DNA of 64,000 nt from an uncultured Gammaproteobacteria bacterium. Lineage in GTDB: Bacteria; Patescibacteriota; Patescibacteriia; Buchananbacterales; UBA6539. The stretch spans positions 16,916 to 80,915 of the forward strand of contig CAZHUO010000002.1 of assembly GCA_964535715.1 (NCBI GenBank), written 5' to 3'. Below, one piece after another: positions 64 to 16,222 of the stretch (positions are counted from its first letter, which is position 1; each line of letters starts with the position of its first letter). The notes beneath the pieces are model-generated. The model made no database searches and was not told where the DNA came from. It was given only the letters and a program-made list of their open reading frames with translations. The translations under genes were made by a program, and so were the position numbers.

Positions 64-218
64 TAACAGGTTTTATGCCGCTGTAAGTTAACAGTTTTAC
101 AGCATCAGCTGGACGTTTTTTGAAGAACTTGGTAAGATAAATATAACAATTTAACTAATCAACATAGCGCCGTTTTTGGCGTGTTTTTTAAAACTGCATA
201 ATCACCTTTACGTCATCT

Positions 219-255
219 TTGACGTCTTGACATAAAAAACCCTATAATATAAGAT
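219..255 (+). promoter_or_regulatory. Candidate sigma70-type promoter with an abutting palindrome, upstream of the peptide/radical-SAM cassette
   Basis: TTGACG (219-224), 18 nt, TATAAT (243-248). An alternative is TTGACA (227-232), 17 nt, TAAGAT (250-255). The perfect palindrome ACGTCA-tctt-TGACGT (210-225) overlaps the -35. Pattern only. Confidence 0.4.
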
Positions 256-436
256 AAAGCGTTAAATTGGTGGCAAAGACGATTATTTTAGTGGTTAATT
301 TTTGTTGATTTTACCCCTTAAACCTATTATTTTGAGGGAAGTCTAAAAGTATAAACCAACAGAAACTAGCCACTTGCTAGATTGTCCTTTGTCATAAGCG
401 AACAGAATGTGAATGGTCGAAAGGAGGTGACAGGTC

Positions 437-520
437 ATGTTGAAAGAGTTCACGCTCGAGAAGCGGTCAAAGGTATCCAGCCGCACGTTGAAGGACGCGG
501 TGGACATGGACCAGGACTAG
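437..520 (+). CDS. 27-aa candidate RiPP precursor peptide (MLKEFTLEKRSKVSSRTLKDAVDMDQD)
   Basis: ATG 437 follows a consensus SD AAGGAGGTGA (421-430) with a 6-nt spacer. TAG 518-520 lies just upstream of the PqqD-like/rSAM/SPASM gene. The ORF is too short for the supplied track and has no homology support. Confidence 0.5.
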   Translation: MLKEFTLEKRSKVSSRTLKDAVDMDQD

Positions 521-530
521 GCCGAGAAGC

Positions 531-2018
531 GTGGGGAGGATGGTGGCTTTGCTAAAGGCAAGGTGCCATCCTCCCCCAACATTCATTCAGGAAAGGAAAA
601 AAGTGATGTATCCAATACTGGTTGATTGCCGAGTAAGGGGGGCTGAAGGTGACTATTACCTTCATCGTTACCGTACGGGTGATGAGTTTGTTCTTGACTC
701 GTTACAAGCACAAATTCTGCAAGCCTGCACAGGAGAGCATGATGTTGAATGGTTGTCCGGAGAGTTCAATCAGCCAGCCGCAGATATCATGATTTTCCTT
801 GACACGCTCCAAGAGGCTGGTCTGGTGATGAAAAGCGAGGGGGCAACAAAGATTGAGTTCGCAGCGCTCACCAAGCCGCCTTACCTCCGCGAAGTTCATA
901 TTGACGCCACAGGCTGGTGCAATCTCTTTGGAAAGTGTAAGCATTGTTACGGCCGACGAACATTCGAAGAAGCTACTAATGACCAGCTAACAACGGAAGA
1001 GATGATACAGCTCATCGAACAGCTTGGCCAGATGAATGTGGCAAACTGCGTAATGTCCGGTGGGGAAGTGTTCATGAGAAAAGATTTACCCCAACTGATC
1101 TCTTGTCTGGCCCAGCAGCACATCCATCTCACCGGTATCTTCACGAATGGAACGATTTATCGCGATGACGTTGTCGATGCGCTTCAAAAGGAAAAGATGA
1201 GGACTCGTTTTCTTGTCAGCCTTGATGGCCACACTCCCGAGATTCATGACTTTATGCGGGGTCACGGTAACTTTCAAAAGACGGTCGATTTCATCGGTCG
1301 GATTCACGCCGCAGGATTTCCGGTAACAATCAATACCGTGGTCATCAAGCAGAACGTTGCGCACCTAATGGCGATGGCTCGTTTCCTGGAAATCCTTGGA
1401 ACGGTTTACCTCTGGCGCATATCGGTACCTCGCGAACAGGGAGAGACGATTGTCAACAAGGAGCTTATTCTGCCAGACTGGAATGACGTTTTTGCAGCCT
1501 ATGAGCAATTGATCAGGTATGCAATCGCTTCCACTGGCGGGATGCAGTACCAGATCAGCTCAATCTTCAAGTCAGCGTTGCTTGAAGAGCCAATCTACTA
1601 CCTGTTCCGCCCGGAAAGTAGTTGCTGCGAATACAAGCGCAACTCCATTACGGTTAAGCCGAATGGCAAGGTTACTCCTTGTACCGCCTTTGACAATTTC
1701 GTCTTGGGTGATGTCAGGCAAAGCTCGTTGGCCGACATCTGGTACAGTGATCTGACGCAGTCATTCAAGGTTCTTCCAGTTCAAGCAACGGCCTGCAGAG
1801 GCTGCGAACTGTTGCCGTATTGTGGAGGTGGTTGTCGCAAAGTGGCATGGGAGATGCACGGCAGCGCTTTGGCTCTGGACGACAGCGCTTGCCCACTTTA
1901 CCGGTTTGCCCGGGATGTTGTCGGGCCCCTTCTGGAGGAACAGGGCGTAACGGCAGAACTGCTTGAGCGCCCCAGTACCTATCGGTTCGATCCACGCATC
2001 ATCGATCACGCGATATGA
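531..2018 (+). CDS. Radical SAM/SPASM peptide-modifying enzyme with a fused N-terminal PqqD-like RRE domain
   Basis: RRE-like segment FVLDSLQAQILQACTGEHDVEWLSGEF...IMIFLDTLQEAGLV. rSAM core GWCNLFGKCKHCYG, SGGEVF, SLDG. 7-Cys SPASM region CCEYKRNSITVKPNGKVTPC...CRGCELLPYCGGGC...ACPLY. The start is ambiguous: GTG 531, ATG 540, TTG 549, or ATG 606 (AGGA 8 nt upstream). Confidence 0.9.
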   Translation: MGRMVALLKARCHPPPTFIQERKKVMYPILVDCRVRGAEGDYYLHRYRTGDEFVLDSLQAQILQACTGEHDVEWLSGEFNQPAADIMIFLDTLQEAGLVMKSEGATKIEFAALTKPPYLREVHIDATGWCNLFGKCKHCYGRRTFEEATNDQLTTEEMIQLIEQLGQMNVANCVMSGGEVFMRKDLPQLISCLAQQHIHLTGIFTNGTIYRDDVVDALQKEKMRTRFLVSLDGHTPEIHDFMRGHGNFQKTVDFIGRIHAAGFPVTINTVVIKQNVAHLMAMARFLEILGTVYLWRISVPREQGETIVNKELILPDWNDVFAAYEQLIRYAIASTGGMQYQISSIFKSALLEEPIYYLFRPESSCCEYKRNSITVKPNGKVTPCTAFDNFVLGDVRQSSLADIWYSDLTQSFKVLPVQATACRGCELLPYCGGGCRKVAWEMHGSALALDDSACPLYRFARDVVGPLLEEQGVTAELLERPSTYRFDPRIIDHAI

Positions 2019-2032
2019 GCTAATTAAGTTAT

Positions 2033-2075
2033 GGAGGGGAGGAGTGAAAACCACGTCTTCCCTCCAATATTTTTA
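2033..2075 (+). terminator. Intrinsic terminator closing the GC-rich cassette
   Basis: GGAGGGGAGGA (2033-2043) pairs imperfectly with TCTTCCCTCC (2056-2065), followed by aatattttt. Confidence 0.55.
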
Positions 2076-2884
2076 TGAAAATGAAAAAAAATAAAACTAG
2101 GAAAGAGTGGTGGCAAAAAATTTTTGATCAGGATTATATTAAAACTTACATTGATATCACACCACAAGAGCTTACGGACAAGCAAGTCTCTTTTTTAATA
2201 AATAAATTAAAGCCGATTTCCAAAAAGAAAATTTTAGATTTGGGATGTGGTTATGGCCGTCATACTCTAAAGCTTGCTAAGCTCGGTTGTTCGATTATTG
2301 GTCTTGATTATTCCAAATTATTTTTGAATATTGCCAAAAGACAAGCCGCAAAAGAAGGCATTAAAGCAAATTTTGTTACAGGCGATATGAGGAAGCTTGG
2401 ATTTAAAAATAAGTTTGACGCGGTTATTTGTATGTTTACATCCTTTGGCTATTTTAATGAATACACAGATCATGAGGATACAATTAGGGGTGTTGCCAAA
2501 GCCCTTAAGTCAAAGGGAATATTTTTATTAGATTTGAATAACCCAGCTCGTCGGTTAGCAGGGATAATCAAGAATGGTAAGCTGGACAAAAAAAGGAAAA
2601 TTTTAATCACTAAAAAGATTTTTAAATTATCGAACGGTTTGAAAGTTACGATAACGCAAGAATTTGATTTGATTAAAATGCGTTGGAAATTAATTAGGCA
2701 GTGGAAGGAAGGTAAGAGGAATAAAAAGTATTCTTCAGATATTTATTTATTTACCTTGCCGGAAATTAAACACTTACTGGAACACAATGGATTTAAAGTT
2801 GAGAAAACATGGGGCGATTTTGACGGTTCACTGTTTAATCTTGAGAGTCGAAGGTTGATTATTTTAGCAAGAAAAAAATTGTAA
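2075..2884 (+). CDS. Class I SAM-dependent methyltransferase
   Basis: Motif I ILDLGCGYGRH, followed by FDAVICMFTSFGYF. Confidence 0.85.
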   Translation: MKMKKNKTRKEWWQKIFDQDYIKTYIDITPQELTDKQVSFLINKLKPISKKKILDLGCGYGRHTLKLAKLGCSIIGLDYSKLFLNIAKRQAAKEGIKANFVTGDMRKLGFKNKFDAVICMFTSFGYFNEYTDHEDTIRGVAKALKSKGIFLLDLNNPARRLAGIIKNGKLDKKRKILITKKIFKLSNGLKVTITQEFDLIKMRWKLIRQWKEGKRNKKYSSDIYLFTLPEIKHLLEHNGFKVEKTWGDFDGSLFNLESRRLIILARKKL

Positions 2885-2895
2885 TATTTTGCATT

Positions 2896-3312
2896 ATGAA
2901 AATTCGTTGGGCTAAAACCAATAAAGATTTTACCTATATTGCTTCTTTATTTAACCCAAAAAATAACCGATATGTTTGGCCGAAAACTCAAACCGCTAAG
3001 CAAGTTAAACAAAACTGCAGTGAAACCAGACGTTATTATATTTTATTAGTTAAGAATAAACCAGTTGGCTGGTTTAACACTCGTTTGTCCGACAGTAAAG
3101 AAGCAACCATTGGAATAATTATTGACTATCCCTACCAAGGTCAAGGTTTTGGCAAACAAGCTATGGCTTTAATTAAAAAGGAAGCAAAAAAATTAGGAAT
3201 GAGAAGATTGCGGCTGGAAGTTTTTTTGGATAATAAATCAGCTATCAATCTTTATAAGAAAACCGGCTTTCGAACAGCAGCTAAAGTGGTGGTAATGGAA
3301 AAGAAAATTTAG
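2896..3312 (+). CDS. GNAT family N-acetyltransferase
   Basis: Acetyl-CoA motif QGQGFGKQAM and C-terminal NKSAINLYKKTGF. Confidence 0.8.
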   Translation: MKIRWAKTNKDFTYIASLFNPKNNRYVWPKTQTAKQVKQNCSETRRYYILLVKNKPVGWFNTRLSDSKEATIGIIIDYPYQGQGFGKQAMALIKKEAKKLGMRRLRLEVFLDNKSAINLYKKTGFRTAAKVVVMEKKI

Positions 3313-3346
3313 ATATCTAAACTTATTTTGTTAAAAATTATTAACC

Positions 3347-3760
3347 ATGCGAGTACGAGCGATTATAATTAAGGACAATAAAATAATCCTGATTAAAAGA
3401 GTAAGACCTAATGAAACATATTGGGTTTTTCCCGGTGGCGGTGTTGATTCTGGCGAAACAAAAGAAAATGCCCTAGCTAGAGAAATTAAGGAAGAATTGG
3501 GTTTGGATATTGAAGTAAAAGAATTATTTCTAAAAAGGCAATCAGATAAACCGGGAATGGAAGGTATAATGGAATACTTTTTTTCGGCAGATATTATCGG
3601 TGGTGAGCTCGGCAGTGGCGATGGTCCGGAATACCAGAGTGGTACTAATTATGAAGGTAATTACAAAATTGATTTAATTGACATTGGTGATTTAGACCAA
3701 ATCAATTTAAAACCAAAAGAAGCTAAGGATTTGGTTCTAAAATTATCTAGTCAAAAATGA
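3347..3760 (+). CDS. NUDIX hydrolase
   Basis: Nudix box GGGVDSGETKENALAREIKEELGL. Confidence 0.85.
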   Translation: MRVRAIIIKDNKIILIKRVRPNETYWVFPGGGVDSGETKENALAREIKEELGLDIEVKELFLKRQSDKPGMEGIMEYFFSADIIGGELGSGDGPEYQSGTNYEGNYKIDLIDIGDLDQINLKPKEAKDLVLKLSSQK

Positions 3761-4386
3761 AAAGAATTATTTTAACATCCCACGGATTCGAAAAAAATAA
3801 GAAATTAAAGCAGCAACTTCTTGGATTACTGCCATCTTTGACTAAAAATTTATCCGTTGTTATTATAACAACCGCTTCAGCCGAATGGAAGGAAAAAAAT
3901 AAACATGCCGTTTCCGCTAAACAAGCGTTGGAAAATATGGGATTTAAAAAGGTAGCTTTTCTGGACGTAGAATTTGAAAGTCCAAATAAGCTAAAGGATT
4001 TTAATTTAATTTATATTTGTGGTGGAAATCCATTTTATCTTTTATATCACCTTAAGAAAAGCGGAGCTGACAAAGTAATTCAGAAGCTAGCAGACAAGGG
4101 AGTTATCTTAGTTGGTGTTAGCGCTGGTGCTGTAGTATTAGGCCCAAGTATCAAAGTCGCTCAATATTTTGATGATGAGAAAAATATTGTTAAGTTAAAA
4201 AATTTTTCTGCCTTGAAACTAACTGACATTATAATTTTACCTCATTATAAAATAGAATACGAAAATAAAGTAAAAGATTTTGAAAAAGAAAATCATTGTC
4301 AGGTTACTCGTCTAAAAGATAGCCAAGGCGTTACGGTAATTGAAGATAAAATTAAGCCCATTGATTTCGGCGGCCGCAAACCGTAA
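3757..4386 (+). CDS. Peptidase S51 (dipeptidase E-like)
   Basis: ICGGNPFYLLYHL and VGVSAGAVVLG, the S51 nucleophile context. ATGA start/stop overlap with the preceding gene. Confidence 0.75.
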   Translation: MKRIILTSHGFEKNKKLKQQLLGLLPSLTKNLSVVIITTASAEWKEKNKHAVSAKQALENMGFKKVAFLDVEFESPNKLKDFNLIYICGGNPFYLLYHLKKSGADKVIQKLADKGVILVGVSAGAVVLGPSIKVAQYFDDEKNIVKLKNFSALKLTDIIILPHYKIEYENKVKDFEKENHCQVTRLKDSQGVTVIEDKIKPIDFGGRKP

Positions 4387-4419
4387 TTTGCGGTACAAGT
4401 AGCCTACTTTCAGTATCAG

Positions 4420-4738
4420 AATAATGGAATTGGATCAAATACTAATTACTCAGACTTAAAAACAGGACACACCAGTGTCCGATTTTTGGGACAGCACAAT
4501 ATCCCTGTCCCGTGTCCGATTTGTCCAATTTTGTAGAATTAGGCCTGACCGAGATGCCTCAAACTCGCCTCTAGTAAATACTCTAAATAACCCTTATAAT
4601 GCTTGTAAAGTTTCGGTTCTAGACCGAGGTACACTGCCAGAAAATCGCCGAAGAGGCGTTTTTTTGCCTGTCCGCCTCTCTGGCTCGCCATTCGGTGGCT
4701 TGCGGGGTATAATGTAACTAATAATTAATTCCATTATT
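4420..4738. repeat. IR-bounded GC-rich non-coding island (candidate ncRNA, regulatory array or MITE-like insert)
   Basis: A perfect 12-bp inverted repeat, AATAATGGAATT (4420-4431) / AATTCCATTATT (4727-4738), encloses palindromes GGACAC-acca-GTGTCC (4465-4480) and GGGACAG-N10-CTGTCCC (4488-4511), direct repeats GTGTCCGATTT (4475-4485, 4512-4522) and a terminator. Confidence 0.45.
4641..4665 (+). terminator. Intrinsic terminator inside the non-coding island
   Basis: aaaatCGCC-gaaga-GGCG followed by seven T (4659-4665). The stem is short (4 GC pairs). Confidence 0.45.
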
Positions 4739-4754
4739 TTTAACCAATATCATT

Positions 4755-5090
4755 ATGCAATTTCTAATCAATTGGCTAATCTATACTTTAGCCATTATCA
4801 TTACCGCCTATTTGCTGCCGGGCGCAACGATTGAAAGCCTTTTTGCCGCATTTGTTTTGGCTTTGGTTTTGGGGTTGATTAACGCGGTTTTAAAGCCGAT
4901 AATAATTATTTTGACTTTGCCGATTAATATTTTAACCCTGGGACTTTTGACATTGGTGATTAACGCCTTACTGGTGATGCTGGCCGATTTTATTGTGCCG
5001 GGTTTTTCCGTTGGCAGTTTTTGGTGGGCGCTTTTATTCAGCATCATTTTGTCAATTATCAATCTGGTGTTAAGCCGGATTAAAGAGTAA
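4755..5090 (+). CDS. Phage holin family IV / DUF360 (YvlD-like) membrane protein
   Basis: 111 aa, about four TM segments, LGLINAVLKPIIIILTLPINILTLGLLTLVINAL pattern typical of this family. Confidence 0.7.
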   Translation: MQFLINWLIYTLAIIITAYLLPGATIESLFAAFVLALVLGLINAVLKPIIIILTLPINILTLGLLTLVINALLVMLADFIVPGFSVGSFWWALLFSIILSIINLVLSRIKE

Positions 5091-5185
5091 ATAATCGAAT
5101 ATAAGTTTTCGTCGTAAAATGTTGTGTGAATTTTTGTCGTAGTCTATCCGCCAAAAGATACCATTTAGTTGTTGATATTTTTTGT

Positions 5186-5214
5186 TTGACTGAGTTTTGA
5201 GGCGGGTATATAAT
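5186..5214 (+). promoter_or_regulatory. Near-consensus sigma70 promoter
   Basis: TTGACT (5186-5191), 17 nt, TATAAT (5209-5214), about 120 nt upstream of ATG 5337. Confidence 0.5.
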
Positions 5215-5267
5215 ACCAAAGCTAATTATTTAATCGAGATTGTTATGGTAAAAACCGTAAATAATCA

Positions 5268-5366
5268 ACCCCGCACTAATTTTATAATCAATTTTATAAA
5301 TATATCTTTTAATTATAATTATTTAATAATAAATGTATGACTCAAAACACTAAATTAGTGCGGGGT
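5268..5366. repeat. 15-bp perfect GC-rich inverted repeat bracketing the start codon of ORF 5337
   Basis: ACCCCGCACTAATTT (5268-5282) / AAATTAGTGCGGGGT (5352-5366), 69-nt AT-rich spacer. It shares the 12-mer CCCCGCACTAAT with 15634-15645. Confidence 0.8.
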
Positions 5367-5663
5367 CAACATAGCGCAACAATTGATGACGTTTTAGAGG
5401 CAGTCAATATTTTTGCCGACGAAACTCATCAGGAGTTTAGTCATGTCAAAGGCGAGATATCGGAGATTAATAGTAACATAACAAGAATGGTTACCAAAGA
5501 TTACCTGGATGACAAGATGTCGGATTTAAGAGGCGATTTAGTAGTGATGATGAGAAAAGAAGATAATAAGCTAAAAACTCTGGTCGGTGTATTAAAAGAA
5601 AAGTCAGTTTTAGATAGCAGTGATGTCAGCCGGATATATTCAATGGAGCCTTTTGCTCAATAA
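5337..5663 (+). CDS. Hypothetical protein (coiled-coil-like)
   Basis: 108-aa ORF with a promoter upstream and a terminator downstream. No family recognised. Confidence 0.55.
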   Translation: MTQNTKLVRGQHSATIDDVLEAVNIFADETHQEFSHVKGEISEINSNITRMVTKDYLDDKMSDLRGDLVVMMRKEDNKLKTLVGVLKEKSVLDSSDVSRIYSMEPFAQ

Positions 5664-5706: not shown

Positions 5707-5822
5707 ATTTTTTTAAGTCTCTTTTTTTATAGCTAAGAATTCTATTTCTGCTGTTTTCTCCCAAGCTTGTAAGTAATTATAACCTTATCTATAATGTAAG
5801 ACAGGGAAGTAATTTTATAATT

Positions 5823-6845
5823 ATGGATTTAGATAGAATAAATGAAATACTAAAATCATATCAGTTTTTTCGGCGCAAGCAGGTTGATGAAGCGATTTTT
5901 AATCGCTTGGCTTCTAATTGGTCTGAAGTTTCCAACTTGCCCAAAGATCTGATTGAAATTCTTCAAAATGAATGCCCTTTGGAAATCAAAGCGAAAACCT
6001 TTGAAACCAAAGACAAAAAAACCGTAAAAGCTGCAATTATATTGTCAGACAATAAGGAAATCGAAACTGTTTTAATGCGTCATAAAGACAATCGCAATAC
6101 GGTCTGCGTATCTTGCCAGGTCGGCTGCGCTTTAAACTGCGCTTTTTGCGCAACCGGCCAGCAGGGCTTTTGCCGAGATCTGACATCTTCGGAAATTATT
6201 TTGCAGGTTTTATATTTTGCCCGCTTTTTAAAAAAAGAAAACGCCAAAATTACCAATGTTGTTTTTATGGGCATGGGCGAGCCGTTTTTGAATTATGATA
6301 ATGTAATGAAGGCGATTTATTGGCTGAATGACAAAGATAAATTTAATTTAGGAAGCCGCCAAATTTCCATTTCAACTTCAGGAATTATTGAAGGCATAAA
6401 TAAGCTTGCCAAAGAGCCATTGCAGGTAAATTTGGCTTTTTCATTTCATGCTGTTGATAACGATTTACGAACCAAGCTTATGCCGATTAACCAAACTAAT
6501 TCCTTGAGTAAAGTATTGGAGGCAATCGGCAATTATATTGAGAAAACAAATCGGCGGGTAATGATTGAATATCTAATGCTTGAAAATATTAATGATTCAG
6601 AAAATTCGGCTCTTGACTTGGCCAAGCTTTTAAAGAAAAAACTGCATCGACTTTTTTTTGTCAATTTGATCAGTTACAATGCGACTGAAAAATTTCAGCC
6701 TTCAAACCCGGAAACAATAAAAAAATTCAAAAGCATTTTGGAAAAAGAGGGAATTGTTGTGGTTCAAAGATATCGCTTCGGAACAGATATTAAAGCCGCC
6801 TGCGGCCAGCTGGCTTTAAATAGAGTAAAATTAAAAGACAAATAA
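5823..6845 (+). CDS. rlmN: 23S rRNA/tRNA (adenine-C2)-methyltransferase RlmN (radical SAM)
   Basis: CQVGCALNCAFCATGQQGF, GMGEPFLNYDNV, C-terminal ACGQL. Confidence 0.9.
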   Translation: MDLDRINEILKSYQFFRRKQVDEAIFNRLASNWSEVSNLPKDLIEILQNECPLEIKAKTFETKDKKTVKAAIILSDNKEIETVLMRHKDNRNTVCVSCQVGCALNCAFCATGQQGFCRDLTSSEIILQVLYFARFLKKENAKITNVVFMGMGEPFLNYDNVMKAIYWLNDKDKFNLGSRQISISTSGIIEGINKLAKEPLQVNLAFSFHAVDNDLRTKLMPINQTNSLSKVLEAIGNYIEKTNRRVMIEYLMLENINDSENSALDLAKLLKKKLHRLFFVNLISYNATEKFQPSNPETIKKFKSILEKEGIVVVQRYRFGTDIKAACGQLALNRVKLKDK

Positions 6846-9693: not shown

Positions 9694-11442
9694 ATGAAAA
9701 ACAGCCAAAATACTAAAAATAACATTTTCACCTGGAAAATCGGCGGAATTGCCGGCGGGGGACAGCAAGCAGCTGGCCTGATTTTTACTAAAGCTTGTGT
9801 TCGCGGTGGCCTGTATACTTTTGACAGCTCCGAATATCCCTCGCGAATTCGCGGCGGGTTGGTAACTTACCGAGTCAGCATTTCCGAAAAACCGGTAATG
9901 GCAATTTACCAAAAAACTCAGCTATTAATTGCTTTGAATCGTGAAGCTTTTGACTACTGTCTACTGGATATGACCAAAGATGGTGTAATTTTATATGATA
10001 GCGATAATTTTGAAATAAAACCCAGTGAAGCCAAAGGAATTAAAGTTTATCCAATGCCTTTGGAAAAATTAGCTAAAGAAGCCGGCATTAAGCCGATTGC
10101 CGTAAATATTATCATTACCGGCGCTTGTGCGGCTTTGCTTGATTATGACTTAGGCATTCTGGATGAGGTTATTAAAGATTCATTTGCCGACAAGGGTCAA
10201 GAAGTTGTAGACATGAATATTACGGCTTCTAAGTTTGGTTATGACTATGCGGTCAAAAATTTTGATACCAAAAATTTTCCTTATAAATTAAAGCCTTTAA
10301 AGAAAAATAATGATTCGATGATTGTCACTTCCAACGATACGCTTTCTTTGGGAGCGGTTGCCTGCGGCTGTAAATTTTTAGCAGCTTACCCGATGACTCC
10401 AGCTTCTTCGATTATGCACAATTTGGCCGCCTGGGCGGAAAAACATGGCATGGTAGTCAAACATGCCGAAGACGAGATTTCCGCCATGCATATGGCAATT
10501 GGTGCGGGTTATGCCGGAGTTAGGTCAATGACTTGCACATCCGGGGGTGGTTTTGCTTTGATGTCTGAAGCCTTGGCTTTAGCCGGAATTACTGAAACGC
10601 CTGTTGTAATTGCTGAGGCGCAAAGGCCCGGCCCGGCCACCGGCTTGCCGACTTGGACTGAGCAAGGAGATTTGGATTTTCTGCGCCATGCCGGCCACGG
10701 CGAATTTATTCGGGTAATCTTGGCGCCGGGTGATCCTAAAGAAGCTTTTAATTTAACTGTTTTGGCTTTTAACTTGGCTGAAGTCTGGCAAATTCCGGTT
10801 TTTGTTTTGGTTGATAAATATATTGCCGAGGGTCATCAATCAATTGAAGATTTAAGCATTAATAAGATAAAAATTGATCGTGGAGAGCTTCTAAGTGAAG
10901 AACAGCTGGCAAAAATTAAAGACTTTAAGCGATATGAATATTCTAAATCAGGAGTTTCGCCTCGTTCTATTCCAGGCCAAAAAGGCGGAGTCTATTTGGC
11001 AAACAGCGATGAGCATGAAGAACACGGCTATACAATCGAAGGGTACGATGCAAAAACTCGGAAGCTGATGGTTGAAAAAAGAGCTTCTAAATTATCTGGT
11101 ATATTAAAAGATTTGCCCAAGCCGGAGTTATTTGGATCTAAATCAGCCAAGTTAACTTTAATCGGCTGGGGTTCAGTCAAAGGTCCGGTTTTGGAAGCAT
11201 TGAAAGTTTTAGATCAAGTAAATTATGTTCATATAGCCGCTCCTTGGCCTCTTAATGCTGATGAAGTCAGAAAAGTTCTAAAAGGAACCAAGAAATTGGT
11301 TGCTATTGAAAATAATCATACCGGCCAACTGGCTAATATTTTGGAACAAAACGGAATTAAAATTGATGAAAGATTAAACAAGTTCGATGGCGCCCAGTTT
11401 TTTCCGGAAGAAGTCATTGAGTCAGTTAGTAAGTTAAAATAA
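9694..11442 (+). CDS. 2-oxoacid:ferredoxin oxidoreductase, fused gamma/alpha subunit
   Basis: 582 aa, YPMTPASSIMHNLA, AEDEISAMHMAIGAGYAG. Followed by the TPP-binding beta subunit gene. Confidence 0.85.
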   Translation: MKNSQNTKNNIFTWKIGGIAGGGQQAAGLIFTKACVRGGLYTFDSSEYPSRIRGGLVTYRVSISEKPVMAIYQKTQLLIALNREAFDYCLLDMTKDGVILYDSDNFEIKPSEAKGIKVYPMPLEKLAKEAGIKPIAVNIIITGACAALLDYDLGILDEVIKDSFADKGQEVVDMNITASKFGYDYAVKNFDTKNFPYKLKPLKKNNDSMIVTSNDTLSLGAVACGCKFLAAYPMTPASSIMHNLAAWAEKHGMVVKHAEDEISAMHMAIGAGYAGVRSMTCTSGGGFALMSEALALAGITETPVVIAEAQRPGPATGLPTWTEQGDLDFLRHAGHGEFIRVILAPGDPKEAFNLTVLAFNLAEVWQIPVFVLVDKYIAEGHQSIEDLSINKIKIDRGELLSEEQLAKIKDFKRYEYSKSGVSPRSIPGQKGGVYLANSDEHEEHGYTIEGYDAKTRKLMVEKRASKLSGILKDLPKPELFGSKSAKLTLIGWGSVKGPVLEALKVLDQVNYVHIAAPWPLNADEVRKVLKGTKKLVAIENNHTGQLANILEQNGIKIDERLNKFDGAQFFPEEVIESVSKLK

Positions 11443-11489
11443 GTCTAGATAAGTCCAGACAAGAATCTTATCTTGACTTATCTCGACTT
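11441..11489. repeat. 23-bp-stem hairpin between the oxidoreductase subunit genes
   Basis: AAGTCTAGATAAGTCCAGACAAG-aat-CTTATCTTGACTTATCTCGACTT, 20 of 23 positions paired. Confidence 0.75.
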
Positions 11490-11506
11490 AATCCTTATTT
11501 CTATTT

Positions 11507-12361
11507 ATGTCTACCGAAAAAGATTTTATAACTCCCATAAAGCCCACTTGGTGTGTCGGATGCGGCAATTTTGGCATTTGGACGGCTTTAAGGCAGGCCT
11601 TGGCTGAATTAGGGTTGGAGCCCCATCAGGTTGCAATGGTTTTTGATATAGGTTGCTGCGGCAATGGCGCCAATTGGCATAACCTGTACGGCTTTCACAG
11701 TCTTCACGGCCGGCCTTTGCCGGTTGCATATGCCGTTAAGCTGGCAAATCATGATTTGAAAGTGATTGCCATTTCCGGCGATGGCGGCGGCTATGGCGAG
11801 GGTGGAAATCATTTTATTCATACTTGCCGAGGAAATATTGATATAACTTATATCATTCATAATAACCACCGCTATAGCTTAACCACCGGCCAATCTTCGC
11901 CGACTTCCGAGCAGGGAGCAAAAACCAAGTCAACTCCGGCCGGACTGATTGAAAAGCCTTTCAACGGCCTTCAGGTGGCAATAACTTGTGGCGCCACCTT
12001 TGTCGCCCAAGGCTATTCTGACGAGGTTGTCCATCTAAAAGAAATATTTAAAAAAGCCATCAGTCACAAGGGATTTTCTTTAGTTGATGTTTTACAGCCA
12101 TGCGTGATATTCAATGACAAAGATATCCGCCAGCAATACCGCGAAAAGACATACAAGCTTGAAGAATCCGGTTACAAGCCAAGCGATAAGCTTGAGGCTT
12201 ATAAAAAAGCAGGGGAGACTGAAAAATTGCCGATCGGCATATTATATCAGGAAGTCCGCCCTAGTTATGAAAGCCAGCTTTCCCAGCTTTTCAAGCAGCC
12301 TTTAGTAAAGCAGAAGGTGGAAAAAGTTGAAATTGCCGAGTTATTAAAAGAATTTAAATAA
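11507..12361 (+). CDS. 2-oxoacid:ferredoxin oxidoreductase, beta (TPP-binding) subunit
   Basis: WCVGCGNFGI and GDGGGYGEGGNHFIH. Confidence 0.85.
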   Translation: MSTEKDFITPIKPTWCVGCGNFGIWTALRQALAELGLEPHQVAMVFDIGCCGNGANWHNLYGFHSLHGRPLPVAYAVKLANHDLKVIAISGDGGGYGEGGNHFIHTCRGNIDITYIIHNNHRYSLTTGQSSPTSEQGAKTKSTPAGLIEKPFNGLQVAITCGATFVAQGYSDEVVHLKEIFKKAISHKGFSLVDVLQPCVIFNDKDIRQQYREKTYKLEESGYKPSDKLEAYKKAGETEKLPIGILYQEVRPSYESQLSQLFKQPLVKQKVEKVEIAELLKEFK

Positions 12362-15790: not shown

Positions 15791-15847
15791 TCGGGCTGGG
15801 GAGATTCGAACTCCCGACCTCATCGTCCCGAACGATGCGCGCTAGCC
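15791..15847 (-). pseudogene. tRNA-Pro 3' fragment (D-loop to acceptor, no CCA)
   Basis: 57 of 57 identical to 16149-16205 of the intact tRNA. It diverges on both sides. Confidence 0.8.
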
Positions 15848-16123
15848 CCCGCCAGAGGCGGGTCGGCCTTTGGCGGAAGCTGCTCTAATAATTATATTAC
15901 GAACTTGTCTTCCAAATCCACTTTTGTAAAATTTTTCTCTCATAATAGCATCCTGTTCGCATAAGTATTTTTCAAAATATAATAATATTAGATGACCATT
16001 CTCACGTGTCCATTTGTTCGATTTCTGATTATGTTGTTTTAATCTGTCTTCTGGATTAATTTTTGAGTAACCGACGTATATCTTTCCATTTTTTATACTT
16101 TTTAAAAAATATACATAAAACAT
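15842..16123 (-). CDS. GIY-YIG nuclease family protein
   Basis: MFYVYFLKSIKNGKIYVGYS...RLKQHN...REKFYKS. The stop TAG (15842-15844) lies inside the tRNA fragment. The GC-hairpin-encoded tail is AASAKGRPASGGG. Confidence 0.75.
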   Translation of the reverse strand: MFYVYFLKSIKNGKIYVGYSKINPEDRLKQHNQKSNKWTRENGHLILLYFEKYLCEQDAIMREKFYKSGFGRQVRNIIIRAASAKGRPASGGG

Positions 16124-16145: not shown

Positions 16146-16222
16146 TGGTCGGGCTGGGGAGATTCGAACTCCCGACCTCATCGTCCCGAACGATGCGCGC
16201 TAGCCAGCTGCGCTACAGCCCG
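16146..16222 (-). tRNA. tRNA-Pro (anticodon CGG), CCA encoded
   Basis: CGGGCTG-TA-GCGC-AGCTGGCTA-GCGC-G-CATCG-TTCGGGA-CGATG-AGGTC-GGGAG-TTCGAAT-CTCCC-CAGCCCG-A-CCA folds as a canonical 77-nt cloverleaf. Confidence 0.9.

Follow-up and report, generated by a model that had tools for sequence, protein, structure and literature searches.

Genes and features of the locus

Near the 5' end of a 64,000-nucleotide stretch of a Patescibacteria genome (contig CAZHUO010000002.1, positions 16,916 to 80,915; the whole stretch is referred to as the window), a gene for a peptide of 27 amino acids (aa) lies directly upstream of a gene for a 470-aa enzyme with radical S-adenosylmethionine (rSAM) and SPASM domains. 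The two genes form a cassette that is interpreted here as the probable precursor and maturase of a ribosomally synthesized and post-translationally modified peptide (RiPP), with the enzyme predicted to begin with a RiPP recognition element (RRE). The elements of the cassette are listed below in window coordinates.

421-430, forward strand: Shine-Dalgarno (SD) sequence AAGGAGGTGA, 6 nucleotides (nt) before the ATG at 437.
437-520, forward strand: putative precursor peptide gene, 27 aa (MLKEFTLEKRSKVSSRTLKDAVDMDQD), recognized from conserved cognate open reading frames (ORFs); proposed leader at about residues 1-15, proposed core at about residues 16-27 (T17, K19, V22, D23).
533-576, forward strand: GC-rich hairpin in the gap between the peptide gene and the enzyme gene (-34.9 kcal/mol, z = -4.3).
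606-2018, forward strand: predicted RRE/rSAM/SPASM peptide maturase, 470 aa, assigned from Pfam, an AlphaFold model, Foldseek, a PDB profile search, hhalign, and homologues; RRE at about aa 1-80 (606-845), rSAM core at about aa 96-310, SPASM at about aa 340-430.
2032-2077, forward strand: terminator-like hairpin (2032-2066) and then the T-run TATTTTTAT (-23.6 kcal/mol, z = -4.8), abutting the start codon of the next gene.

The cassette occupies an island of about 50% G+C (400-2070) in a genome of 32% G+C. Across 401-2000, the G+C fraction of 200-nt segments is 0.46-0.60, against 0.28-0.35 in both flanks and 0.30-0.43 in the remainder of the 64 kb; G+C at third codon positions is 0.89 in the peptide ORF, 0.56 in the enzyme gene, and 0.25-0.37 in the following six genes. 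The order within the island is a perfect SD sequence, the 27-codon ORF, a strong hairpin, the RRE/rSAM/SPASM gene, and the terminator hairpin. Much of this had been described in the original prediction, which was made from the nucleotide sequence without database searches: the GC-rich island, the consensus SD sequence with its 27-codon ORF, and the hairpin and T-run that close the unit are all confirmed. The same is true of its claim that host genes mostly start without an SD sequence, as an SD core (at least 4 nt, within 20 nt upstream) precedes just four of the 50 large ORFs (at least 100 aa) in the window. The host is essentially SD-less, and the two SD sites of the cassette, one for the peptide gene and one for the enzyme gene, are conspicuous exceptions.

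The peptide and its conservation

The surrounding DNA was compared for about 24 distinct homologous loci (designated by L numbers), in which the enzymes share 29-77% identity. Every locus with upstream DNA has one cognate short ORF, on the same strand and just 5' of the enzyme gene, giving 22 distinct cognate peptides, one per locus, and a GGAGGTGA-like SD sequence leads the peptide ORF in other loci as well as in the window. The original prediction had staked its reading on a short ORF preceding the homologous enzymes, and this is what the loci contain; the other option that it allowed, a substrate encoded elsewhere, is now unlikely. In six-frame translations, the motif [TS][LMIV]K[ADSG][SAT]VD occurs once per locus and once in the whole window.

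The peptides follow the consensus MLKxFxLxxR...(R/H)T(L/M)K(A/D)(S/A)VD and then an acidic tail. All 16 peptides aligned have R10, T17, K19, V22, and D23, and nearly all have F5, while the C-terminus is acidic but variable rather than conserved. The window peptide has no Cys, Trp, or Tyr. Cys is one of five residues seen at position 12 (C, H, Y, K, or N) and is therefore not required by the family. Examples from other loci are MLKGFQLKKRQKASSRTLKDAVDMDAD, MLKVFRLVPRKCMRAHTLKASVDSFGPDD, MLKGFKLIRRKHAYARTMKASVDADSYSW, and MLKDFCLEPREYKHARTLKASVDSGGPED, and the most distant enzymes (29-36% identity) still have related peptides, such as ...KRTYSAVDMDWD..., ...KRTYASVDRDDEY, and ...KRTFSSVDRDDD.... 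The only substitution seen at V22 is in L058 (about 990-1100), a member of a 36%-identity branch with a Lys/Arg-rich precursor ending in RTKTAINMAD, where I-N replaces the V-D of all others. Orthologous peptide genes differ mainly at third, synonymous positions (13 synonymous and 4 non-synonymous codons between L007 and L016), a pattern taken to indicate purifying selection on the peptide ORF.

No model in Pfam or NCBIfam matches any of the peptides. An exact-sequence look-up in a collection of 15 billion proteins returned one of seven peptides, labeled "hypothetical protein"; gene callers almost always miss these ORFs. In the literature searched, neither the peptide motif nor a family consisting of this peptide and enzyme was found.

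The hairpin between the two genes, which the original prediction did not mention, also recurs. A comparable structure of unrelated sequence, often followed by a T-run, is present in 12 other loci, and in the resulting 13 loci it begins 6-29 nt past the stop codon of the peptide gene. In many precursor/maturase operons a hairpin between the genes sets a high ratio of precursor to enzyme, and the hairpin at 533-576 is read here as a putative attenuator or transcript stabilizer. The terminator hairpin downstream of the enzyme gene is kept in L043 and L045.

Domain architecture of the enzyme

The rSAM core and seven-Cys SPASM domain recognized in the original prediction are matched by Pfam (Radical_SAM, E 1e-24; SPASM, E 4e-12), and their Cys pattern is invariant in 49 homologues. 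The rSAM triad is C105, C111, and C114, and the SPASM set is complete (C341-x12-G354-x4-C359, C397-x2-C400-x5-C406-x3-C410, C429). The cluster motif is CX5CX2C (CNLFGKCKHC; residues 105-114, window 918-947) rather than the canonical CX3CX2C; this form, with a two-residue [FY]G insertion, is shared by 22 of the 49 family members, and the other 27 have the canonical spacing. The enzyme had been proposed to measure 470-495 aa and to start 10-85 nt after the short ORF. It is present, with its start at ATG 606 and not at the upstream GTG 531 since all homologues begin with MYPxL there, and the longer version is dropped.

The PqqD-like segment that had been proposed at the N-terminus gave a divided result. 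A Pfam PqqD scan of this region is below threshold (E 0.06), as it is for every family member (0 of 49 at E ≤ 0.01), so the assignment is based on profile comparison and structure. By hhalign, the family N-termini match the N-termini of PqqD-annotated homologues with a probability of 95.9% (E 5e-9, 65 columns). An AlphaFold model built from the family alignment (predicted local distance difference test score 95.3, predicted template modeling score 0.93) has three or four strands followed by three helices in residues 2-70, a winged helix-turn-helix with beta-beta-beta-alpha-alpha-alpha topology. In Foldseek, the whole chain aligns to SkfB, SuiB, CteB, PqqE, and anSME, and a PDB sequence profile search returns the same set with PqqE on top (E 1.6e-24). 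The N-terminal segment is thus predicted to be a PqqD-type RRE.

The enzyme belongs to a family of about 50 full-length homologues (29-77% identity), mostly from metagenome-assembled genomes of Patescibacteria, and a search without a word index gave about 50 cluster representatives (50% identity) above 280 bits. While 78 NCBIfam models match the enzyme, none comes near its cut-off, the best being ScmE with 136 bits against 400; no family-specific model in Pfam or NCBIfam covers it, nor does the literature searched describe it. One family member is split into ORFs of 92 and 344 aa (L053, 1230-2653), apparently a frameshift or pseudogene, or else a sequencing error.

Comparison with known systems

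SuiB (streptide) and the thermocellin-type enzyme CteB, together with SkfB and AlbA, resemble the enzyme in having an N-terminal RRE, an rSAM barrel, and a seven-Cys SPASM domain, with the precursor encoded directly upstream. The Foldseek alignment to SuiB is full-length (469-476 columns, template modeling score 0.62-0.64), and the PDB profile match to CteB covers residues 27-428. However, identity to this class is only 16-18%, the locus here is without a protease or ABC exporter, the cluster motif is CX5CX2C, and the core has neither the Lys-Trp pair of streptide nor the Cys of sactipeptides and ranthipeptides. Across the family there is no conserved core Cys as expected of a sactipeptide or ranthipeptide, and Cys occurs in relatives only at the variable position 12. 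Likewise, no core aromatic residue is conserved that could serve the cross-links of streptide/KxxxW peptides, darobactin, triceptides, or ryptides, and F5 lies in the presumed leader. Scores for the NCBIfam models WgkB (117 bits against a cut-off of 650) and DynA (67 against 450) are also far too low. The inference that the known Cys, Trp, and Tyr chemistries do not apply, which the original prediction drew from a single peptide, can now be extended: no such residue is conserved in the core family-wide, and these chemistries appear excluded across the family.

The systems for pyrroloquinoline quinone (PqqE, PqqD, and PqqA) and mycofactocin (MftC, MftB, and MftA) likewise combine an rSAM-SPASM enzyme and a PqqD-type domain for recognition with a precursor that is very short. 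Their products are intracellular and need no exporter, which would fit the absence of one here. The enzyme scores 105 bits against a cut-off of 381 for PqqE (TIGR02109), and the window peptide has no Glu-x3-Tyr and no Tyr at all; for mycofactocin (TIGR03962) it scores 94 bits against 265, and the variable, acidic C-terminus of the peptides has no Gly-Val-Tyr. None of PqqB, PqqC, PqqF, MftD, MftE, and MftF is encoded near the cassette. The best NCBIfam match is ScmE of the SynChlorMet cassette (TIGR04250; E 1e-39, residues 120-459), which is itself uncharacterized, and distant database homologues (27-29% identity) labeled ScmE carry the Pfam PqqD domain. With its score below the cut-off, the enzyme is not a member of that family; the precursor also differs from that of SynChlorMet, and the companion ScmF is absent.

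YydG/EpeE is an rSAM enzyme that acts on a Cys-free peptide at Val and Ile, and an activity of this type would explain a core without a cross-link partner. The PDB profile match to it is weak and limited to the N-terminal part of the rSAM domain (E 8e-6), with a Foldseek E of about 7e-8; EpeE also lacks an N-terminal RRE of this kind, and the yyd operon includes a protease and an ABC transporter. In the cores of microviridin-type graspetides (TxKYPSDWEE), the Thr, Lys, and Asp that form the lactone and lactam rings are spaced as in the T-L-K-x-x-x-D and acidic residues of the core here; this resemblance is useful as a lead only, as no ATP-grasp ligase is found among the Pfam-annotated neighbors in any locus read, the partner here being an rSAM enzyme. 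A resemblance to ribosomal protein uS12 (RYHTVRGALD) was dropped because the matching positions are not the invariant ones of the family.

Neighboring genes

An all-against-all comparison of neighboring ORFs across the loci gave four recurrent families besides the enzyme: a GNAT acetyltransferase, a class-I methyltransferase, a HisKA_7TM kinase, and a class-I aminoacyl-tRNA synthetase. No further gene family recurs in three or more loci. Two of the four families follow the cassette in the window.

2075-2884, forward strand: class-I S-adenosylmethionine-dependent methyltransferase, 269 aa (Pfam Methyltransf_25/11), with host-like G+C.
2896-3312, forward strand: small GNAT N-acetyltransferase, 138 aa (Pfam Acetyltransf_1).

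The best NCBIfam match of the methyltransferase is a daptide RiPP methyltransferase, below its cut-off (73 against 175 bits), and those of the GNAT protein are RimI and ArsN1, also both below cut-off. A methyltransferase orthologue lies directly 3' of the rSAM gene in L043, L045, L055, and L031, and a more weakly related gene does so in L058, while GNAT homologues (36-44% identity) hold this position in L006, L021, L026, L029, and L022. Counting the window in each case, the methyltransferase and the GNAT gene are each found in six loci, and one or the other in 11. The two are probably accessory genes of the system, either tailoring or protective. The cassette had originally been described as a minimal two-gene unit holding exactly four elements; this description has to be abandoned, given these recurrent partners outside the island and a valyl-tRNA synthetase gene (valS) that adjoins the cassette in half of the loci.

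A gene for a HisKA_7TM sensor kinase, often with a GAF domain, lies 5' of the cassette in L001, L043, L045, L006, and L049, five loci that represent three clades of the enzyme; the kinase might sense or regulate the peptide system. In L001 (1-2458), directly before position 1 of the window, the kinase is accompanied by a stand-alone receiver protein and a low-molecular-weight phosphatase. In L055, a relative of 58% identity, genes divergent from the cassette on the minus strand (795-5546) encode a Glu/Leu/Phe/Val dehydrogenase, an unknown 504-aa protein, and ThiF-like and nitroreductase-like proteins resembling the halves of Rv1355c; these dehydrogenase, ThiF-like, and nitroreductase-like neighbors were met in this one locus only.

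Linkage to valS

In 12 of the roughly 24 distinct loci, valS lies no more than one gene away from the cassette. Pfam domain names had suggested a leucyl-tRNA synthetase for the downstream gene, an assignment that was rejected as NCBIfam identifies valyl-tRNA synthetase (ValRS) of two types, either bacterial (PRK05729) or archaeal-like (PRK13208/alt_ValS). Four arrangements occur. In some loci valS follows the cassette in the same orientation, and in L007 and L016 its start codon overlaps the preceding stop codon; in others it is upstream and divergent (L054 and L047), downstream and convergent (L055 and L031), or upstream in the same orientation (L057). Linked loci are spread over all major branches of the enzyme tree, and in the sister loci L027 and L054 the adjacency survives a rearrangement. 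In one distant member (L051), the cassette is followed by a bona fide threonyl-tRNA synthetase gene (thrS), and in another by an asparagine-synthase-like gene. A simple version of the idea that the core Val matches the cognate synthetase fails, since the peptide of the thrS-linked L051 still has V-D. The bacterial-type ValRS proteins beside the cassette are short, at 713-753 aa (L049, 7429-9570; L007, 1797-3938; L054, 1270-3531), and match only positions 2-696 or so of the 860-position ValRS profile, the C-terminal region being missing.

The gene linkages suggest that the product may work with or on ValRS. Several natural products directed at aminoacyl-tRNA synthetases are encoded with immunity genes: microcin C has the GNAT protein MccE, and the mupirocin, agrocin 84, and albomycin clusters have resistant copies of the synthetase. 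An analogy can be drawn, as a synthetase gene (valS in 12 loci, thrS in one) and a small GNAT protein that would acetylate amines stand beside the peptide cassette. Here, however, valS is ordinary-looking and sometimes translationally coupled to the rSAM gene, and the conserved set includes no MccB-like adenylating enzyme. The adjacent valS and thrS genes score above the cut-offs as ordinary ValRS and ThrS equivalogs, and because they look like housekeeping copies an immunity function is less convincing. A physiological link is at least as likely as a toxin-plus-resistance pair, as valS is housekeeping-like and sometimes co-transcribed with the cassette.

Age and possible mobility of the cassette

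The G+C content of the cassette is above that of its flanks in the window, L043, L021, and L006, but below it in L016, L027, L049, and L008; because the departure goes both ways, movement between lineages is a fitting explanation. The order peptide-rSAM-methyltransferase is common to the window, L043, and L045 (69-77% enzyme identity). Among these three, the four-fold degenerate sites of the rSAM genes are saturated (identity 0.27-0.35), yet in all three the G+C at such sites is 0.47-0.53 in the rSAM gene against 0.27-0.39 in the adjacent methyltransferase gene that has diverged along with it (window 606-2884; L043, 6001-8290; L045, 6001-8272). As the GC excess has been kept through saturated synonymous divergence, it is old or maintained and does not date from a recent transfer. 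Its possible causes include selection specific to the gene, biased conversion, and repeated replacement. Of the horizontal acquisition originally proposed, mobility is therefore retained and recent transfer is not.

No relative was found in viral contigs, and INPHARED phages and PLSDB plasmids gave only matches of 23-29% identity, so carriage by a mobile element of these kinds has not been observed. In L018 (Portnoybacteria), an IS30-like transposase (HTH_38 and rve) and two more rSAM genes are located just upstream of the cassette (2445-3464 and 1-2197), and a fragment of a Y1 transposase lies at the end of L043.

Upstream elements and surroundings

Two further features precede the SD sequence of the peptide gene.

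219-248, forward strand: promoter-like site TTGACG, 18-nt spacer, TATAAT (11/12 in a consensus scan), in AT-rich DNA upstream of the island; putative function.
355-400, forward strand: non-coding 5' element with the palindrome CTAGC-N5-GCTAG (366-380), recognized by its conservation in L043.

The promoter-like site follows a terminator-like hairpin of the preceding gene at 167-182. The palindrome, CTAGCCACTTGCTAG, sits in the non-coding stretch upstream of the peptide SD sequence in both loci (window 355-400; L043, about 5760-5800), and about 40 nt of the element are almost identical in L043, though the loci are otherwise 71% identical. It is absent from L045, its predicted RNA fold is not significant (z = 0.0), and an Rfam scan of window 150-700 gave no meaningful match. 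The element is possibly an operator or part of a 5' untranslated region.

The host is close to Candidatus Buchananbacteria, as its RarA protein shares 80-86% identity with proteins of metagenome-assembled genomes assigned to that group. Nearly all genes of the window are on the forward strand. The only Rfam matches in the 64 kb are two tRNA genes, at 15791-15861 and 16149-16222 (minus strand), the first of which is barely over the gathering score (30.6 against 29 bits). The alpha and beta subunits of a 2-oxoacid:ferredoxin oxidoreductase are encoded at 9694-12361 and RlmN at 5823-6845; judged from gene content, these would indicate an anaerobic, Fe-S-dependent lifestyle, compatible with an active rSAM maturase.

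Proposed biosynthesis

The explanation favored here, with a probability of about 0.8, is that the two genes are the precursor and maturase of an undescribed family of rSAM-modified RiPPs centered on Patescibacteria. A pathway can be proposed from what is shown of the two genes and their conservation, the domains of the enzyme, the hairpins, and the linkage to other genes. The strong SD sequence, of a kind scarcely used elsewhere by the host, would let the 27-aa precursor be translated at a high rate, while the intergenic hairpin would either keep the enzyme message below the precursor message or stabilize the latter. The PqqD-like RRE would bind the conserved leader MLKxFxLxxR, and the core (T17-x-K19-x-x-V22-D23 and the acidic tail) would be threaded into the rSAM active site. 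There, the 5'-deoxyadenosyl radical would take a hydrogen atom from the core, for which the favored site is the beta-branched V22 (Ile in one branch) or its neighbor D23, and the two auxiliary clusters of the SPASM domain would accept the second electron, giving an oxidative change. In SuiB, CteB, PqqE, and anSME, auxiliary clusters serve two-electron oxidations, whereas epimerization by PoyD and EpeE does not depend on having the two; an oxidative outcome is favored because both auxiliary-cluster Cys sets are invariant. The likeliest result would be an intramolecular cross-link that joins the carbon robbed of its hydrogen to the side chain of Thr or Lys, and otherwise a dehydrogenation. Since GNAT proteins and methyltransferases typically act on amines, one or both may then cap an amine of the product (Lys or a new N-terminus), as tailoring or self-protection, or detoxify it. 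The product would finally act in connection with ValRS, the gene for which is the most frequent neighbor of the cassette.

A more specific proposal makes an aminoacyl-tRNA synthetase the target of the product: an unusual Val- or Thr-derived residue or ring, built by the rSAM enzyme in the T-x-K-x-x-V-D core, would allow the product, or a peptidase fragment of it, to bind or regulate ValRS (the threonyl enzyme in one branch), and an amine cap added by the GNAT protein or methyltransferase would provide self-protection. This proposal is speculative and, in this exact form, probably incorrect. In a variant of this proposal, the HisKA_7TM kinase that recurs nearby would sense the product as a signal.

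Several observations weigh against parts of this interpretation. The methyltransferase and GNAT genes have host-like G+C, and a terminator-like hairpin parts the methyltransferase from the enzyme gene, so that it is recurrence that places the two in the system. No protease or exporter is conserved near the cassette in the loci read, the one candidate being a major facilitator superfamily gene in L051. There is no valS in the 64-kb window itself, the valS and thrS copies elsewhere are housekeeping-like as noted above, and synteny inherited within Patescibacteria could account for some of the linkage. To these is added the Pfam PqqD result for the N-terminus, and the modification itself is deduced only from conserved residues and cluster content.

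Alternative explanations

The main alternative for the chemistry keeps the same precursor and enzyme, but makes the enzyme a redox-neutral epimerase that converts V22 or another core residue to the D-form, as do YydG/EpeE and PoyD, leaving a linear D-amino acid peptide. A core with neither Cys nor an aromatic partner agrees with this, as does an invariant beta-branched Val replaced only by Ile, Val and Ile being exactly the residues that EpeE epimerizes, and EpeE is among the Foldseek matches. That match is, however, far weaker than those to SkfB, SuiB, CteB, PqqE, and anSME, and the full two-cluster SPASM domain is invariant, whereas characterized epimerases do not require it. A hydrogen-atom donor is also hard to assign, because no Cys outside the cluster motifs is invariant in all 49 members and C148 is invariant in a closer subset only. 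Epimerization is considered unlikely, though it deserves to be kept in mind. Much less probable is that the short ORF is a regulatory leader peptide, controlling through the terminator-like hairpin the expression of the rSAM gene and often of valS, with some other substrate for the enzyme. The position of the hairpin 6-29 nt past the stop codon, often with a T-run, and the frequent presence of an aminoacyl-tRNA synthetase gene further along the operon, its start codon overlapping a stop codon in two loci, are what such control would look like. It is nevertheless the amino acid sequence that is conserved rather than codon content: five residues never vary, and most codon changes are synonymous. 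The peptide has just one or two Val codons and not a run of them, the enzyme has a predicted peptide-recognition domain, and the ORF is kept in loci without a nearby synthetase gene, including the window.

The enzyme might instead mature a non-peptide or distant substrate, as anSME, AhbD, and NirJ do, in which case the short ORF would encode a small partner protein or be non-functional. In NCBIfam and Foldseek, the scores of these three enzymes are close to those of the peptide maturases, and the lack of a protease and exporter would be expected. Set against this are the RRE, the strict co-occurrence of ORF and enzyme across 29-77% enzyme identity, and the conservation of an SD sequence and hairpin around the short ORF, which together leave this explanation with very little room. 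Finally, the sharp steps in G+C near 400 and 2070 could have arisen from the joining of a GC-rich fragment into an AT-rich contig. An assembly chimera of this sort is excluded because three independent SRA assemblies have the identical gene and both AT/GC junctions at 99.97-100% identity over 2.1-3.0 kb; in addition, the arrangement of island and methyltransferase recurs in L043 and L045, and the terminator hairpin across the 3' junction is conserved.

Implications

The precursor and maturase described here probably constitute a new family of RiPPs, whose chemistry is probably also new and whose genomic association is unusual. Because the precursor excludes the well-studied Cys, Trp, and Tyr chemistries of rSAM-SPASM enzymes, working out one member would be likely to uncover a new reaction or, failing that, a new class of substrate. 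A linkage to valS that withstands rearrangement is unusual for a RiPP and, with the linkage to putative amine-capping enzymes, provides testable functional leads; the pair is also small (27 aa and 470 aa) and suited to heterologous co-expression. Patescibacteria have tiny genomes that, by most reports, are nearly devoid of biosynthetic gene clusters, and the family would represent a widespread peptide-modification system in these bacteria that gene callers have overlooked. If the more tentative proposal of a synthetase-directed product were true, the family would add a new chemical class to the RiPPs and supply the first peptide effector of ValRS; the ultra-small episymbiotic bacteria that make it might use it to attack their hosts or to send them control signals.

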